A DNA stretch of 42,180 nt from a virus: the IMG/VR virus record IMGVR_UViG_3300045988_015372, positions 1-42,180 of that record; one strand, written 5' to 3'. The position numbers and the translations under genes were made by a program. Below, one piece after another: positions 20,789-26,216 of the stretch (its first letter is position 1; every line of letters starts with the position of its first letter). The notes beneath the pieces are model-generated. The model was not told the origin of the DNA. It searched no databases and was given only the letters and a program-made list of their open reading frames with translations.

Positions 20789-21060
20789 TTCGTTAGCATT
20801 TTCCATTAGCATTTTGTTGTCAAAATCGCTAATGAACTTGCTCTAATCTATTACTGGTTGTCAAAGAAATTGACAGCATAAAACGGAGATATCCATTGAG
20901 AATAAAAGAAAAACCAGCAATCTCAATCGATTGCTGGTTTCCTTTTAGGTGGCAGGGGATGAGGGATTCGAACACTGATATAAAGCAATAAAACCGTTGA
21001 AAAATCAAGCGGTATTTTCTGCGTTAGCATTTTCGTTAGCATTTTTATAAAAATTCGTCA
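20789..21060. other. attP region: core resembling a tRNA 3' end (20947..20975, minus strand GTGTTCGAATCCCTCATCCCCTGCCACC), flanked by direct repeats GTTAGCATTTT (20792, 20805, 21024, 21036) as candidate integrase arm sites
   Basis: AT-rich non-coding stretch adjacent to int. The TTCGAATCC(stem)(acceptor)G-CCA pattern reads like a T-loop through the CCA end of a tRNA. TTAGCATTTT-type repeats occur on both sides of the core. Confidence 0.5.
20912..20948. terminator. Bidirectional rho-independent terminator (aaccagcaatc ... gattgctggtt)
   Basis: 11-bp stem with A-run upstream and T-run downstream. Lies between the convergent + strand gene 20327..20788 and the minus-strand integrase operon. Confidence 0.65.
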
Positions 21061-22057
21061 TCGCATTTGCCGCCTTGATTCGGTCGATTTTTGCAATGTG
21101 TGTATAAATCCCGCGCACAGTCTGGATGTCAGACCACCCGCCGAACTCCATTGTCTGCAAATCGGAGAATCCAAGATGATAAGCGAGAGACGCAAAGCTA
21201 TGGCGAAGTCCATGCGCGCCGACGTTCGGAATCCCGAGAATATTGCAGACGTCTTCCATTGTTCGATATAAGCCGCAAGGGGGACCTTCCCACACTGGGC
21301 CGGATTTCTTTCCGGCCCTTTTTACGGCTGCTTCAAGCTGCGGAATCATGATCGGAATGACACGCTCACTCTCGACAGTCTTGTTTACATCGCGGGAGAC
21401 AATTTTATTATCCTTGTCCTGTACGGCGGCTCCGTGGACTGTGATAGTCTTATTCTTCAAGTCAATATCTGAATAGTCAAGCCCCATGATCTCCGAACGG
21501 CGGAGCGAATGGAGAGCAAGAAGGGCAGGAATTTCGTATTTGCGTCCTTCCAGCAGCGGAATGACTTTCAGAATTTCTTCCGGCTGCAAGAACGGGCGCT
21601 CTTTGGATTTCTTTTTCTGCTTGGGAAGTGTGACGTCCGGTTCTGCTGCACCGGAAGCGCGTAGGCAGGAGCACAGGAAACTCCAAGAGTTCTTTGCAGT
21701 CTTATAAGAATATTTCTGGTATGTAGCATCTACAACGGACTGCCAGTTTATATCAGACGGCTTTTTCTCGAGAATGTCGTTGAATCTGTGTCGCTGGATG
21801 ATGTCATAGCCGCGAATCGTCGAAGGGGACGTATCGCCCGGCAAGGAATCAACATAATCTTTCATGATCTGCTTGATGGTATTCTTTGATTTCGGCGCTA
21901 TGACGCGCGTCTCCGCCCGGTGTTCGGCTTTTATGAGCTGGGCTTGACGGATACACTCTTTCTTTGTTGAGGCGGACACGGGGACGCTGACGCCGTTCAG
22001 ACGCATTTGGATGAACCATGTGCCGCTGGGAAGCTTGCGCGGTTCCGGGACTTTCAT
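21005..22057 (-). CDS. int: Tyrosine integrase (phage integrase family)
   Basis: C-terminal catalytic region GAHGLRHSFASLAYHLGFSDLQTMEFGGWSDIQTVRGIYTHI carries the R...HxxR...Y signature. Lies next to the attP-like region. Confidence 0.85.
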   Translation of the reverse strand: MKVPEPRKLPSGTWFIQMRLNGVSVPVSASTKKECIRQAQLIKAEHRAETRVIAPKSKNTIKQIMKDYVDSLPGDTSPSTIRGYDIIQRHRFNDILEKKPSDINWQSVVDATYQKYSYKTAKNSWSFLCSCLRASGAAEPDVTLPKQKKKSKERPFLQPEEILKVIPLLEGRKYEIPALLALHSLRRSEIMGLDYSDIDLKNKTITVHGAAVQDKDNKIVSRDVNKTVESERVIPIMIPQLEAAVKRAGKKSGPVWEGPPCGLYRTMEDVCNILGIPNVGAHGLRHSFASLAYHLGFSDLQTMEFGGWSDIQTVRGIYTHIAKIDRIKAANAMTNFYKNANENANAENTA

Positions 22058-22065
22058 TTTCTCAC

Positions 22066-22467
22066 CTAGATTCTGATTGGTATTTTCACAATGCTTTGCA
22101 GATGGTCGCGCACCCAGCCGATATTAGGACTGAGCAGATCGACGAGCAGGAGTATCCCGGCCAGAAAGATAATGCCGAGCAGCGCGGCGATGATCTTTCG
22201 CTTTAACTTCATGGATTGCTGGCAGAACGCGACCGTTTGACGTAGGTGCTTAATTTCCTGCTGTGCGTCGTGAAGCTCCTGCGGGATATCAGATTCCTGT
22301 GGAACATCATCCGGATGGATGTCAAAAAAGCGGTCGAGCGAGATATGCAGGAGGCGACAGACAGGGCCTACAGTGTCGATTCCGGGATTTAATATTTCCC
22401 CACGCATGAATTGACCAATGTTTTTCAGAGACTTTCCGGAGGCGTTAGCCAAATCTTGATAGGTCAT
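22066..22467 (-). CDS. Membrane-anchored XRE-family HTH regulator (134 aa; N-terminal HTH, C-terminal TM helix)
   Basis: Start taken at MTYQDLANASGKSL (ATG 22467, RBS AAGGAAAG), not at the upstream Met of the ORF track. HTH segment LANASGKSLKNIGQFMRGE; TM segment IIAALLGIIFLAGILLLVDLL. Confidence 0.6.
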   Translation of the reverse strand: MTYQDLANASGKSLKNIGQFMRGEILNPGIDTVGPVCRLLHISLDRFFDIHPDDVPQESDIPQELHDAQQEIKHLRQTVAFCQQSMKLKRKIIAALLGIIFLAGILLLVDLLSPNIGWVRDHLQSIVKIPIRI

Positions 22468-22818
22468 GTTCGGATAGCGGCTTTCCTTCTTGTTTCGACA
22501 AATTTCAGACAAATCTTGCTTCAAAAAACGACTTCCTTTCAAAAAAAGCACTTCTATGGGAACAAAAAAGGACCTTACGGTTATCGACAAATCACCTTTC
22601 CGAGGTGTAATCTGTACTTGCAAGCAAGCTCCCACTCGCTTGCGGCAAGCCGAAGCCCCGCCGCCGGGGAGATTCGACGGCGGGGTGATTCACAGTTAAG
22701 AAATCCGACCGTAGAAAAAATAGCCGCGATTTTGTATAGGCTGATGATTGATATATTGAAACGAATGTTTTAGAATGACGGTATGCACAACAGAAGCGGA
22801 GAGAGGAAGGAACGGAAG

Positions 22819-22938
22819 ATGGATAGAGAAGAATTGATCGATCACATTAAATCTGGACTGGAAGAACTGAGCGCGGCGGAACTCATCGAGGTTTATTCCT
22901 GCTGCGTATTACATCATTACCTCGTCTCCCACCAATAG
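22819..22938 (+). CDS. 39-aa ORF with a strong RBS (possible small gene or 5' remnant of a decayed gene)
   Basis: RBS GAGAGGAAGGAACGGAAG precedes ATG 22819. The product MDREELIDHIKSGLEELSAAELIEVYS reads like a genuine N-terminus. Overlaps the 3' end of the minus-strand gene by 22 nt. Confidence 0.25.
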   Translation: MDREELIDHIKSGLEELSAAELIEVYSCCVLHHYLVSHQ

Positions 22939-23936
22939 TGCTCACTTGTGCGTATATCCGCGCGAATGATTTCATCTAAGCTACTGTATTTACTCGTGAA
23001 ATCCATATACGCATAATACCATGTTATATCAAAATGCGGGTTGCAAACCCTGCACGGGCGCATGTGATACTTTTCAACAGTTGCAGCATTTACCGGATGT
23101 GCGACGTTTGCATATCGGCATCCGGAAGAATGATAGATATTTTGGTTGGATGAATAAAACGTGTATATGTCATAAATGGTAGAGTGCGGCAAACCATCCT
23201 CTCCAACATAACACCCGTTGGGAATTCCGGTAGCACGGCCAATGGCTGTGAAATATTCCACACGGTGCTCTCGCTGAAATTTGCGTGTACGAACGGTTAA
23301 ATCTGTAATGTAGGTTTTAAGATAATTCGTGCAAATCTGAACAAGCCCGTCGTAGAGGCGTTTCCTGCCACATATCGCATCGTACTGTGCACGAAGTTCT
23401 TCACACATTGCAGACCGCGCAAGGCGTAAAGAATCATATTCTTCCTTATTTTGATCGGTCGGAAGAATAATATTTAGATCTCTCATGCACTGATTAAGTG
23501 TTGCGAGCCGCTCTTTCTTCCGGCGGAATGGATTTGGAATTTTGGAAATGACAAAGTCTATTCCATCTTGGACAAAAGGAATCTTGGTAAACGGGATAAG
23601 AATGATAGCGAGTGACATCATAATCACCCAAACCGGAATCTTCGGTTCGTTTTTTTCTGACGCTGGTGTAGAAGATGCGGCGGACGCATTCGCGCTCTTA
23701 GATGAAGAAGTCCCAGATCTGGCTCCTGTTTGATCGTCGAAATTATATGGGCAGTCGGCTTTGCCGTCGCCGTCTAAATCAGTGTGCTGATGTGCTCTAT
23801 ATCCGTGATGATAATGATATTCTCCGGTTGCGCTATCATAATGTCCGCCGCGACCGTCTGTGCGACCCGGATGTGCGGAGGCAACGGACAGTAATAAAAG
23901 TGCCATGATCATGCAAAGAGAAAATTTCTTTATCAT
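22917..23936 (-). CDS. Transmembrane protein: signal peptide, extracellular His-rich YHYHHGY plus Excalibur-like Ca-binding motif (DLDGDGKADC), one TM helix, Cys-rich cytoplasmic domain
   Basis: Hydrophobic N-terminus MIMALLLLSVASA. DxDGDG..C motif. Second hydrophobic helix IPVWVIMMSLAIILIPF. C-terminal CxxC pair. AT-rich codon usage relative to the rest of the genome. Confidence 0.6.
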   Translation of the reverse strand: MIKKFSLCMIMALLLLSVASAHPGRTDGRGGHYDSATGEYHYHHGYRAHQHTDLDGDGKADCPYNFDDQTGARSGTSSSKSANASAASSTPASEKNEPKIPVWVIMMSLAIILIPFTKIPFVQDGIDFVISKIPNPFRRKKERLATLNQCMRDLNIILPTDQNKEEYDSLRLARSAMCEELRAQYDAICGRKRLYDGLVQICTNYLKTYITDLTVRTRKFQREHRVEYFTAIGRATGIPNGCYVGEDGLPHSTIYDIYTFYSSNQNIYHSSGCRYANVAHPVNAATVEKYHMRPCRVCNPHFDITWYYAYMDFTSKYSSLDEIIRADIRTSEHYWWETR

Positions 23937-23987
23937 ATATCATCCACCCGAAACAACTGTAACATGAGACGTAGAAAGGAACCAGAA

Positions 23988-24128
23988 ATGAAAGAGCAAG
24001 AAGCGAGAAAAATAATTGCAAAACTTACATACGAAGAAAAAGTGCGGCTCAACGAGATGCTAAAATCCCTTGAACAAATGCGTCAACCTTTGCAGCCTCT
24101 TCCGGCGTCAAGAGCGCGAGACGTCTGA
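23988..24128 (+). CDS. 46-aa ORF antisense to the 3' end of the repressor gene, followed by an intrinsic terminator (candidate antisense transcription unit)
   Basis: RBS GAAAGGAACCAGAA precedes ATG 23988. Stop at 24126-24128. A strong + strand terminator lies 21 nt downstream, inside the cI coding region. Confidence 0.3.
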   Translation: MKEQEARKIIAKLTYEEKVRLNEMLKSLEQMRQPLQPLPASRARDV

Positions 24129-24387
24129 TCAATTCTTCATCTAAAGCGGCCTCGGCACTGTGATCAGTGCTGGGGCTTTTTTTTATGCCCTTTTCGTCCG
24201 CCTCTCCGGTCAGCTCAGCGACGGTCACGCCGAGCGCGGACGCGACGGCAGAAAGATTTGCGTAATTGGGTACTCGTCCATTTTTACCCCATTTCCCAAT
24301 TGTGCCGTTCCCAAGGTTCAGCTCCTTTTCGAGCTTATACATTGATGTGCCTTTTTCCTTGCACAGAGCCTTAATTTTTTCAACCAT
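24049..24387 (-). CDS. cI-like repressor (XRE-family HTH, 112 aa)
   Basis: HTH segment LCKEKGTSMYKLEKELNLGNGTIGKWGKNGRVPNYANLSAVASALGVTVAEL. Divergent from a Cro-like gene across a 290-bp AT-rich switch region. Confidence 0.75.
   Translation of the reverse strand: MVEKIKALCKEKGTSMYKLEKELNLGNGTIGKWGKNGRVPNYANLSAVASALGVTVAELTGEADEKGIKKSPSTDHSAEAALDEELIRRLALLTPEEAAKVDAFVQGILASR
24149..24184 (+). terminator. Rho-independent terminator on the + strand, embedded antisense within the cI-like gene
   Basis: 12-bp stem gcctcggcactg / cagtgctggggc with 2 G-U pairs and loop tgat, immediately followed by TTTTTTTT. Confidence 0.6.
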
Positions 24388-24674
24388 AATACACCTTGAA
24401 AAATAATAGACATAAATCCGAAAATAATGCTTGACATTCTGACATAAGTCTAATATACTTAGACTTACAGGGACAACAAAACACCACCCCGTCCTTGACA
24501 GGCTTTGAAAAACGCTATTTTGTTACCCAATTCAATATTAGCCCGAAATCTAAAGAATGTCAAGAGCGTGGACGGGTCCCCCGGCAAAAAACAAAAAAAT
24601 TTCTCATCTATGATGAGAAAAAGAGATTTGTCTATTGACAAATCTACGACACATTGAAAGGAGGCGGCCAAAGG
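24388..24674. promoter_or_regulatory. Lysis-lysogeny switch region: divergent promoters plus palindromic operator candidates
   Basis: TTGACA-17nt-TATACT at 24431-24459. The -10 overlaps inverted repeat AGTCTA-N7-TAGACT. Perfect palindrome TTTCTCATC-TAT-GATGAGAAA at 24600-24620. TGTCTATTGACA at about 24629-24640. Confidence 0.55.
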
Positions 24675-24863
24675 TTGGTATATGACAATGTCAAGCGCAT
24701 GTGCGAAAAGCGAAAAATCAGCATTGCTGTACTGGAAAAAGAGTGCGGCATCGCAAACGGCACGATTGGAAAGTGGAATCTGCGAAAGAGTTCACCTTCT
24801 GTGGCGACGGTTCAGAAAATTGCAGATTATTTCGGTGTCACGGTTGGGTATCTGCTGAAATGA
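24675..24863 (+). CDS. Cro-like XRE-family HTH protein
   Basis: HTH segment ISIAVLEKECGIANGTIGKWNLRKSSPSVATVQKIADYFGVTVGYLL. RBS AAAGGAGG at 24657-24664. TTG 24675 or ATG 24699 as start. Confidence 0.6.
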   Translation: MVYDNVKRMCEKRKISIAVLEKECGIANGTIGKWNLRKSSPSVATVQKIADYFGVTVGYLLK

Positions 24864-24877
24864 AGGAGGAATGAGAA

Positions 24878-25117
24878 ATGCCGAAGCTGGCAGTCAAGCG
24901 GGACACGGATTACCGTCTGTCCGTGATGATTCACGGAGAGATGGGGGCGCAGAACGTGAAGCCGGAAAAGGCGGCGGAGTACGCCGGGGTTTCACGGCCT
25001 ACGCTTTACAATCTGCTCAAGCGGCCGACGGCGTACTTTCCGCAAACACTGCGCCTGATGCGGGCGCTGAGCATCCCAGTCGAGGAAATGCGGGCGGCAA
25101 TCAGCTACCCGTGGTAA
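24878..25117 (+). CDS. Small HTH DNA-binding protein (79 aa)
   Basis: RBS AAGGAGG precedes ATG 24878. HTH segment AAEYAGVSRPTLYNLLKRP. Confidence 0.6.
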   Translation: MPKLAVKRDTDYRLSVMIHGEMGAQNVKPEKAAEYAGVSRPTLYNLLKRPTAYFPQTLRLMRALSIPVEEMRAAISYPW

Positions 25118-25414: not shown

Positions 25415-25653
25415 GATACCCGTGTTCAACGTGCCCGAAAAATGCGGATTGCCGCATGGGGCTAAGATGCGTGGACTGGCGGCGGTGGTTCGGCGTGACG
25501 TGGGACTATGATCTTCGCAAGGCCGCGCATGAGATAGAAAAAGCCGCCCATGTCGCTACACATGGACGGCCGGTGACAGACAATTTCGTTCCGTATCGAA
25601 AATATGTCTATGGCCATATTTTAACGGCTTGTTGGCGAAATGTCAACCATTAG
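25411..25653 (+). CDS. Small Cys-containing hypothetical protein (80 aa)
   Basis: ATGA coupling to the upstream ORF. Product contains CSTCPKNADC. Confidence 0.45.
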   Translation: MRYPCSTCPKNADCRMGLRCVDWRRWFGVTWDYDLRKAAHEIEKAAHVATHGRPVTDNFVPYRKYVYGHILTACWRNVNH

Positions 25654-25661
25654 GAGGAATT

Positions 25662-26216
25662 ATGAAGATCACAAAGGAACTTTTGAAGGAGAAAGGCGCG
25701 TGTGCCGCTGGCTATCGTGATTTTTTGAAGGAATATCCGGTGGACAAGTATCCGGACGGCGTGGAGTATCAGGAACTTTTGGACTGCTGTGCGGAAAAGA
25801 ATTTTAGCTACGGCTCGTGGCTGCTGGGCGCGTTCGGGAAAACGGATGAAGTCCGCAAGATCGACGGAGATTTGATCGTAGAGAAAGGCATCATCTTTGC
25901 CGGACGGCTTGAAGTCAAAGGCTGCATCAAGGCTGGCTGCGGCATCAAGGCTGGCTGGGGCATCAAGGCTGGCAGGGGCATCGAGGCTGGCGAGGGCATC
26001 GAGGCTGGCTGTGGCATCGAGGCTGGCGAGGGCATCGAGGCTGGCTGTGGCATCGAGGCTGGCATGGGTATCGAGGCTGGTGATGAATTTGGTATTTATG
26101 CTGGTCTGCGCTGCCGTATCACGAATAAAACTCAACGCAAGATCATCGCAAAAAATCGCCCGGAGAACATCATGTGTGGCGAATTTGAGGAAAAGAAAGA
26201 TGACGCAGTGCGATAA
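25662..26216 (+). CDS. Hypothetical protein with about ten tandem hexapeptide units (x-G-I-K/E-A-G)
   Basis: RBS AGGAGG precedes ATG 25662 (MKITKELL). The 18-bp units ggcatc[a/g]aggctggcNNN repeat directly from 25915 to 26094. Confidence 0.6.
   Translation: MKITKELLKEKGACAAGYRDFLKEYPVDKYPDGVEYQELLDCCAEKNFSYGSWLLGAFGKTDEVRKIDGDLIVEKGIIFAGRLEVKGCIKAGCGIKAGWGIKAGRGIEAGEGIEAGCGIEAGEGIEAGCGIEAGMGIEAGDEFGIYAGLRCRITNKTQRKIIAKNRPENIMCGEFEEKKDDAVR
25915..26094 (+). repeat. About 10 perfect or near-perfect 18-bp tandem repeats inside CDS 25662..26216
   Basis: ggcatcaaggctggctgc / ggcatcgaggctggcgag units are contiguous with no spacers. Confidence 0.85.

Follow-up and report, generated by a model that had tools for sequence, protein, structure and literature searches.

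The 42,180-nt viral sequence IMGVR_UViG_3300045988_015372 from IMG/VR, referred to here in its full length as the window, carries a phage lysogeny module on its minus strand, as judged from its gene list and from profile searches. Within this module, a gene for a cI-like repressor of the XRE family (24049..24387, minus strand; 112 aa; Pfam HTH_3, E 1.8e-8) is met head-on by a small gene on the plus strand. This open reading frame (ORF), designated ORF-B (23988..24128; ATG at 23988, TGA at 24126-24128), codes for the 46-aa peptide MKEQEARKIIAKLTYEEKVRLNEMLKSLEQMRQPLQPLPASRARDV and is preceded by the ribosome-binding site (RBS) GAAAGGA (23974..23980, plus strand), 7 nt 5' of the ATG. Codons 1-20 occupy the intergenic gap between cI and the neighboring 339-aa gene, and codons 21-46 run antisense to the segment coding for the cI tail, so that ORF-B overlaps the last 80 nt of cI. 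Beyond its stop codon, and within the cI gene, lies a plus-strand hairpin followed by eight T residues (24148..24184), the predicted intrinsic terminator of the convergent unit.

The cI protein consists of a helix-turn-helix (HTH) domain (residues 1-60), a disordered linker (residues 61-77; 24157-24207) and a two-helix tail (residues 77-111; 24052-24156). AlphaFold 2 models place the two C-terminal helices at residues 77-91 and 95-111 and give residues 64-77, the part coding for the terminator, confidence values (pLDDT) below 50. No S24 self-cleavage domain or other protease domain is detected by Pfam in the 112 residues, where the only matches are to HTH_3 and HTH_26, and a PDB sequence search with cI returns a single uninformative HTH match. 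DNA searches of positions 22900-24900 against 50,697 GenBank phages yield no match, and an Rfam search of 22600-24700 yields only chance matches below threshold.

The terminator arms (24148-24160 and 24165-24177) form 12-13 pairs, including 2-3 G.U pairs, around a TGAT loop, and the T8 run spans 24177-24184. The stem-loop thus directly abuts the U-tract and follows a co-oriented stop codon at short distance, the stem starting 19 nt after that of ORF-B, as is characteristic of intrinsic terminators. Folded as plus-strand RNA, 24148..24184 has a free energy of -24.3 kcal/mol, compared with -14.7 kcal/mol for the minus-strand RNA. Shuffled versions average -12.8 to -13.0 kcal/mol, with z-scores of -4.45 and -4.2, and none of 200 shuffles is equally stable. 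In a scan of the 8 kb between 19500 and 27500, this site ranks first among all terminator-like sites. Its opposite strand codes for cI residues I-K-K-S-P-S-T-D-H-S-A-E-A.

About 140 related loci (designated by L numbers) were gathered from IMG/VR, ENA, Logan and GTDB, and they indicate that the embedded terminator is a recurrent feature. Among 91 unique cI-like genes, 52 have an antisense hairpin with T-run within the coding sequence, nearly always located at 0.55-0.65 of the length of the gene, and none contains a sense-strand terminator within the gene; those without a linker terminator are mostly short HTH-only proteins or distant homologues. When the GTDB set is left out, the antisense hairpin and T-run are found in the same linker in 49 of 62 unique repressor genes. 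Such structures reach 2.6 per kb in these 62 genes, a 23-fold excess over the 0.11 per kb counted, in either orientation, for 310 control genes from the same loci. The GTDB genome scan returned distant relatives only (metagenome-assembled genomes of Oscillospiraceae, Faecousia, Christensenellaceae and other Clostridia), of which L059 (Provencibacterium) alone has the linker terminator. Streptococcus phage Javan330 and Latilactobacillus phage TMW 1.46 P2 also have cI-like repressors, but these lack the embedded terminator; the feature is thus not general to phages of Firmicutes.

Hairpins occupying the homologous site form at least 15 clusters without sequence relationship to one another, and the peptides that they encode differ as well, including SPSTDHSAEA, DPIPKDGA, ERPADGEA, ALGDNVEG, ETITGSDGF, NPAPTNGDG, KPASTSGDEL and TPALEISENGR. 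In all relatives the distance from hairpin to T-run is 0-2 nt, the geometry of a terminator. Across 33 hairpin variants, folding of the antisense RNA involves 57 G.U pairs, compared with 4 when the cI mRNA is folded, and the antisense RNA is the more stable in 31 of the 33 by a mean difference of 5.8 kcal/mol. Lysine codons within the A-run of cI are AAA in 88 cases and AAG in 4, compared with 320 and 210 in the rest of the same genes (Fisher p 2e-13). Together, the strand asymmetry of the G.U pairs and the AAA codon bias argue for selection at the nucleic-acid level, acting on RNA from the strand that is plus in the window. By these sequence measures the linker terminator is beyond chance, and it appears to shape the amino acid sequence of the linker, which follows a K-K-x-P…G/D-x-E pattern.

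Much of this was anticipated by an initial sequence-only reading of the window. Its coordinates for the RBS-preceded 46-aa ORF and for the 80-nt overlap are borne out, and so is its expectation that an in-gene structure of this kind is unlikely to arise by chance, given the z-scores of about -4.3 and the densities of 2.6 and 0.11 per kb. It had described a terminator with a 12-bp stem 21 nt after the ORF; the terminator itself stands, with 12-13 pairs, the TGAT loop and T8, but the gap is 19 nt.

Several observations indicate that ORF-B is a genuine protein-coding gene under purifying selection. In at least nine sequence families, a small ORF with RBS and ATG begins 34-79 nt beyond the cI stop codon, runs convergently into the cI tail and ends 7-33 nt before the hairpin, and relatives have stronger RBSs at the matching place (AGGAGG, GGAGG or AAAGGAG). 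For the 19 codons of ORF-B outside cI, comparison with L125 and L129-L140, whose ORFs are 59-68% identical to that of the window, gives a ratio of nonsynonymous to synonymous change (pN/pS) of 0.24 in the ORF-B frame and about 1.3 in the two other frames. Over codons 12-21, L125 differs from the window by six synonymous changes and one replacement, and L026 differs from it in the part outside cI by two synonymous changes and one I-to-L substitution. The AlphaFold 2 model of ORF-B is a single helix from residue 2 to 32 (pLDDT 93-98) with a disordered C-terminus of 14 residues, those that overlap most of the cI tail. The N-terminal ~30 residues are therefore probably the functional part, and the remainder represents read-through into cI antisense. 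Only three database proteins match ORF-B of the window, and where fetched loci came annotated, the gene calls mostly lack the small ORF.

The repressors and their convergent genes are mosaic. A single type of tail with its type of ORF-B is paired with at least six unrelated N-terminal domains, and the N-terminal domain of the window repressor is found elsewhere joined to other tails and other small ORFs. The ORF-B type always accompanies the tail type carried by the window cI, which is not the case for ORF-A, a second small plus-strand ORF of the window described below. Profiles of the small ORFs and of the repressor tails align weakly with each other (hhalign 90.6%, E 1.3e-6, 29 columns), a match that may reflect a generic helix-cap-helix. 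Pairwise scores between a small ORF and its own tail are significant for L004 only and marginal elsewhere. The idea that the small ORFs are homologous mimics of the tails receives little weight, as the tail profile matches designed helical proteins too.

The promoters of the convergent genes in relatives point to control by LexA, whose clostridial operator is GAACN4GTTT/C (PMC4234289). In L129-L140, the small gene is preceded by a promoter, TTGAAA-17-TAAAAT, with CGAACATACGTTTT, CGAACATATGTTCT or, on the other strand, GAACGAATGTTT in its spacer. L141 has TTGATA-17-TAATAT with AGAACAAACGTTTT, and L145 has TTGACT-17-TAAAAT with AGAACGAAAGTTCT. In L003/L099, L102 and L001, LexA boxes lie 22-43 nt before the ATG of the small ORF. 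Perfect GAACN4GTTY sequences are located in the promoter spacer or just downstream of it in L129-L140, L003/L099, L102, L141 and L145. Overall, 19 of 27 tail types have perfect boxes upstream of convergent ORFs that lie downstream of cI, the SOS unit beginning 0.6-1.9 kb away in some relatives. In L106/L110/L115/L116, the LexA-boxed convergent gene that overlaps the 3' end of cI codes for a Peptidase_M78 ImmA/IrrE homologue (E 2e-12); in some relatives this is a 205-aa protease with a cI overlap of only about 43 nt. The ImmA/IrrE family includes proteases that inactivate XRE-type repressors. The position convergent with cI thus appears to be an SOS-controlled "antirepressor slot".

A separate observation concerns L005/L021/L071/L073/L086/L088/L090, where a 65-66-aa ORF (MEVHKMQSINIRFENGKVNIIVDG… or MTGGKNMECINIRVNNGKVDVTVDG…) lies 1.0-1.9 kb downstream of cI and is oriented towards it, its ATG preceded at 7-9 nt by a perfect LexA box. 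These features mark it as a further conserved SOS-controlled small phage gene.

Within the window itself, the promoter of ORF-B is eroded. Alignment by eye with L134 suggests a remnant at 23949..23965 (plus strand), comprising the degenerate LexA box CGAAACAACTG (23949-23959) and a -10-like TAACAT, and in the same comparison the start region of the 339-aa gene, 52 nt away, stands where the -35 would be. No local sigma-A promoter passes the scan between 23843 and 23987, and a scan of the whole window for GAACN4GTTC with one mismatch allowed gives a chance-level number of matches, none of them near ORF-B. No copy of the cI operator is found near or upstream of ORF-B in the window.

A candidate distal promoter of the SOS type, TTGATA-17-TAGAAT (22748..22776, plus strand; 10 of 12 matches), has the same design as the promoters of relatives and contains in its spacer the LexA-like box GAAACGAATGTTT (22758-22770), one mismatch or insertion from GAACN4GTTT. 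The predicted promoter drives ORF-A (22819..22938, plus strand), which codes for the 39-aa peptide MDREELIDHIKSGLEELSAAELIEVYSCCVLHHYLVSHQ (beginning MDREELIDHIKSGLEELSAAELIEVY…) and whose 3' end overlaps the 339-aa gene (22917..23936, minus strand) convergently. The same architecture is present in L141, where the box is perfect and an ORF-A homologue is directly convergent with cI; the L141 repressor combines the N-terminal domain of the window and an identical hairpin with a different tail. In the window, the first 31 residues of ORF-A are kept, and divergence sets in where the 339-aa gene begins. In L026-L033 the distal promoter is kept exactly to its -10, and a 416-aa gene replaces ORF-A and the 339-aa gene. 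By these comparisons the window locus is a composite. The 339-aa gene has the look of a moron, acquired between the SOS promoter and the small ORF.

The distal promoter lies downstream of the terminator at 20911-20942, and no strong plus-strand terminator is found between it and 24148 or in the L026-L033 context. A plus-strand hairpin at 23631-23647 was rejected as a terminator (-6.8 kcal/mol, z -0.6). The sequence-only reading had held that no plus-strand transcription could feed the terminator inside cI, a claim that does not survive the promoter-like 22748-22776. It had accordingly expected a dedicated convergent transcript: a convergent unit ending in cI is upheld by its conservation in relatives, but a dedicated promoter directly upstream is present only as a remnant. 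Of its two proposals for the product, antisense RNA or small protein, the protein-coding gene is favored by the pN/pS of 0.24, and the analogy it drew with OOP and sar is not, those RNAs being non-coding.

The layout is probably that of a prophage induction switch, and on balance we favor the view that the unit forms the 3' portion of a transcription unit inducible by DNA damage and convergent with the prophage repressor, with ORF-B as antirepressor. The small gene would be under a sigma-A promoter whose spacer contains a LexA box, as is seen in relatives and may be supposed for the window, and DNA damage would turn it on through cleavage of LexA. In the window, its own promoter having lost the -35, ORF-B would probably be expressed from the 22748..22776 promoter, on an RNA of ~1.4 kb running from 22777 to 24185 through ORF-A, the antisense of the 339-aa gene and ORF-B, and ending in the cI linker. 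The peptide would act by binding the C-terminal two-helix tail of cI, a proposal that draws on the co-inheritance of tail and ORF-B type across at least six N-terminal domains, and this binding could break either the oligomerization or the DNA binding of the repressor. The 137-nt antisense overlap and head-on transcription may also cut synthesis of full-length cI. The terminator would confine convergent transcription to the tail-coding third of cI, keeping it off the HTH-coding part and the PRM/PR switch.

A number of observations weigh against this proposal. Pfam and PHROG scans of seven small ORFs give no family match, described antirepressor families included. A PDB search with the tail profile also finds designed helical proteins, and by pairwise scores cognate ORF/tail pairs are no more similar than non-cognate ones. 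No LexA box is found beside the small ORF in L004, L005 or L107. For the window, the degenerate ORF-B promoter means that expression of ORF-B is itself conditional on the distal promoter, whose LexA-like box at 22758-22770 is imperfect. Finally, L021 and L143 have the terminator and lack the adjacent small ORF.

This last point, together with the lost -35 and the degenerate LexA box upstream of ORF-B, would suit a locus in which ORF-B is a relic, unexpressed as a regulator, and the terminator serves only as an insulator that keeps plus-strand transcription, whether coming from the distal SOS promoter and ORF-A or of other origin, out of the HTH-coding part and PRM/PR. Such a history seems unlikely here, however, as ORF-B and its RBS are intact in all close relatives that have the eroded promoter, and outside cI the window and L026 differ in it by two synonymous changes and one I-to-L change. 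Moreover, the distal promoter points towards ORF-B on the same strand, no strong terminator separates the two, and it is ORF-B that fits the tail type of this cI, the partner tail of ORF-A (that of L141) being absent. It is also possible that an antisense-RNA or transcriptional-interference effect on cI is added to that of the peptide. That such an effect is the whole function, with cI mRNA pairing and RNase III cleavage or polymerase collision in the manner of OOP and the ORF incidental, is decidedly unlikely. Perfect complementarity to the 3' region of cI over 137 nt (24049-24185) and the conservation of the convergent layout with its defined 3' end would both be expected of an antisense regulator, but outside the overlap the ORF frame is under purifying selection, and RBS and ATG are kept in at least nine families. 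In addition, the convergent gene of some relatives is the 205-aa protease, which overlaps cI by about 43 nt, and the SOS unit of others begins 0.6-1.9 kb away.

The A-run and hairpin can also be read on the cI mRNA, as a signal for programmed -1 frameshifting or transcriptional slippage at A AAA AAA that would yield a truncated, HTH-only repressor (…GIKK-KPQH and stop). A slippery heptamer is in the correct phase in the window (ATA AAA AAA AGC) and in most relatives (A AAA AAA/G/C/T), and the -1 frame of the window stops after 4 codons. This explanation is nevertheless highly improbable. The hairpin is far weaker on the sense RNA (-14.7 compared with -24.3 kcal/mol), and the G.U pairs overall number 4 compared with 57. 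The spacer is 1 nt in the window and 1-3 nt over the range of loci, although -1 frameshift sites typically have a spacer of 5-9 nt. Four hairpin types, including those of L115/L116, L102 and L059, have no in-phase heptamer, the -1 products vary among relatives, and the direct abutment of hairpin and T-run is the geometry of a terminator. Slimmest of all are the chances that the structure is a by-product of mosaic recombination or of linker composition, with the conserved GGCATAAAAAAAG junction as a recombination joint or Pro/Gly-rich linker codons pairing by chance. Module boundaries do coincide with the site, a given N-terminal domain being found with more than one tail and a given tail with more than one N-terminal domain, but such an origin leaves unexplained the strand-specific G.U pairs, the AAA bias, the missing sense-strand terminators, the 23-fold excess over control genes and the steady distance of 7-33 nt from the stop codon of a co-oriented ORF to the hairpin.

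Other genes of the lysogeny module include an integrase (21005..22057, minus strand) and, beside it, a 189-aa protein (22066..22635, minus strand), and a cro-like HTH gene (24654..24863) is divergent from cI. Strong PR-like and PRM-like promoters lie in the cI/cro gap, TTGACA-17-TATACT on the plus strand (24431-24459) and, facing it, TTGACA-17-TAATAT on the minus strand (24563-24535). Several operator-looking TTGACA/TGTCAA inverted repeats are present in 24388-24700, pairing 24429-24446 with 24679-24696 and 24487-24506 with 24552-24571. Some relatives (P0001-P0006; 181-186 aa) have two tandem HTH copies (MVDK… followed by MVEK…) before the linker and tail and are duplicated or fused repressors. 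On the cI strand of L125, a hairpin at 2964-2983, GGCTCTC-ACGA-GGAGAGCC with a T/A-rich tail, lies between the RBS of the small ORF and the next gene and probably ends the cI transcript. The window lacks such a hairpin, so that in it cI and the 339-aa gene are probably co-transcribed.

The gene between cI and the integrase module varies, coding for 339 aa in the window, 416 aa in L026 (3446-4696) and 224 aa in L134 (1679-2353). The 339- and 416-aa versions have a common 5' start region and, by our reading, a hydrophobic N-terminus resembling a signal peptide. The 339-aa protein has no Pfam match; it contains a His/Tyr-rich N-terminal stretch, GGHYDSATGEYHYHHGY, and the C-terminus is Cys-rich in both the 339- and 224-aa proteins. 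A weak hairpin with T7 (23631-23657, plus strand) lies antisense in a linker of the 339-aa gene (…SEKNEPKIPV…) and has the "A-run plus hairpin" look of the cI terminator. The protein beside the integrase is conserved at 189-213 aa (window 22066-22635, minus strand; L134 891-1532; L141 3521-4117), with a weak HTH_3 match and a hydrophobic C-terminus that by our reading is probably membrane-spanning, and it could be a membrane-anchored XRE-like regulator. In the early region, a 195-aa ORF (25629-26216, plus strand) contains six-residue units (GIKAGW/GIEAGE/GIEAGC…) repeated in tandem about ten times, a pattern suggestive of a repeat-built fold.

Among known systems, the proposed switch comes closest to the antirepressor modules that phage 186 and the Gifsy phages place under LexA control, not to OOP or sar. 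As with 186 Tum and Gifsy GfoA/GfhA/GftA (PMC3121763), a small repressor without an autocleavage domain leaves induction to a separate small gene with a LexA box on its promoter, here in the relatives. Unlike those systems, there is no sequence similarity to them, and the box is of the Gram-positive GAACN4GTTY type. In the Gifsy phages, the antirepressor unit and the immunity region lie apart (PMC3121763), whereas the unit described here is convergent with cI, overlaps its 3' end and is predicted to terminate inside it. The resemblance to antisense regulators lies in the predicted short convergent transcript over the 3' end of a lysogeny regulator and in the intrinsic terminator within the target coding sequence. 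OOP RNA is antisense to the 3' end of lambda cII, and both OOP and P22 sar are non-coding antisense RNAs. Here, by comparison, the unit encodes a peptide under purifying selection, the target is the maintenance repressor itself, and the window has no dedicated promoter immediately upstream.

Two other systems combine an XRE-type repressor with a neighboring antagonist. SinR of Bacillus subtilis has a C-terminal helical oligomerization element, and SinI is a small helical antagonist encoded beside it; the window likewise has an HTH repressor of this type with a C-terminal helical element and an adjacent small helical ORF. However, sinI is co-oriented with and upstream of sinR, unlike the convergent and overlapping ORF-B, and neither cI nor the small ORFs have a Pfam match to SinI or SinR. 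In the ImmR/ImmA systems of ICEBs1 and many Gram-positive phages, an XRE repressor is inactivated by a neighboring dedicated factor, and the slot gene of L106/L110/L115/L116 is an ImmA/IrrE homologue, although the factor in the window is a predicted 46-aa helix and not a protease. The Streptococcus and Latilactobacillus phages checked have the classical layout, with immA co-transcribed with immR and no embedded terminator.

Excludons or noncontiguous operons are mRNAs that code for proteins and also run antisense through an opposite gene (PMC7154746, PMC11034616). The predicted order in the window of promoter 22748, ORF-A, antisense 339-aa gene, ORF-B and antisense cI tail would resemble these, with the differences that it lies within a phage lysogeny switch and is bounded by a terminator in a coding region. 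Small-protein antirepressors such as Qtip and those of the TF-smORF (transcription factor-small ORF) modules are ~40-60 aa in length, without known domains, non-proteolytic and specific for their cognate cI (PMC10432266). ORF-B is of the same size class and likewise has no known domain, but the Qtip/TF-smORF antirepressors are SOS-independent, turned on by a divergently encoded transcription factor, and do not overlap the repressor gene (PMC10432266). No description of a convergent small gene terminated inside a repressor linker was found in the literature searched. By comparison with these systems, the principle of a LexA-controlled antirepressor is known and the layout is new, in that the small gene runs against the repressor gene and overlaps it, with its terminator inside the repressor linker.

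If the peptide binds the tail, the overlap would tie the antirepressor genetically to its target, which would explain the mosaic exchange of repressor halves. A more speculative extension, which we hold only tentatively, is that the tail as handle, the SOS-induced peptide as ligand and the linker terminator as boundary form one indivisible specificity cassette that moves between unrelated DNA-binding domains. Were this so, the overlapping coding would enforce co-inheritance of antirepressor and target, and phages could swap induction specificity independently of immunity specificity.

The arrangement appears to be common in uncultured gut Clostridia phages. A design of this kind, with an antisense intrinsic terminator in the disordered linker of a protein and an uncalled small ORF, is overlooked by annotation pipelines. 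Prophages of gut Clostridia mostly have short XRE repressors without a self-cleavage domain. To the question of how a large group of uncultured gut phages senses DNA damage, the locus offers a testable answer, namely a LexA-gated small gene placed head-on to the repressor.

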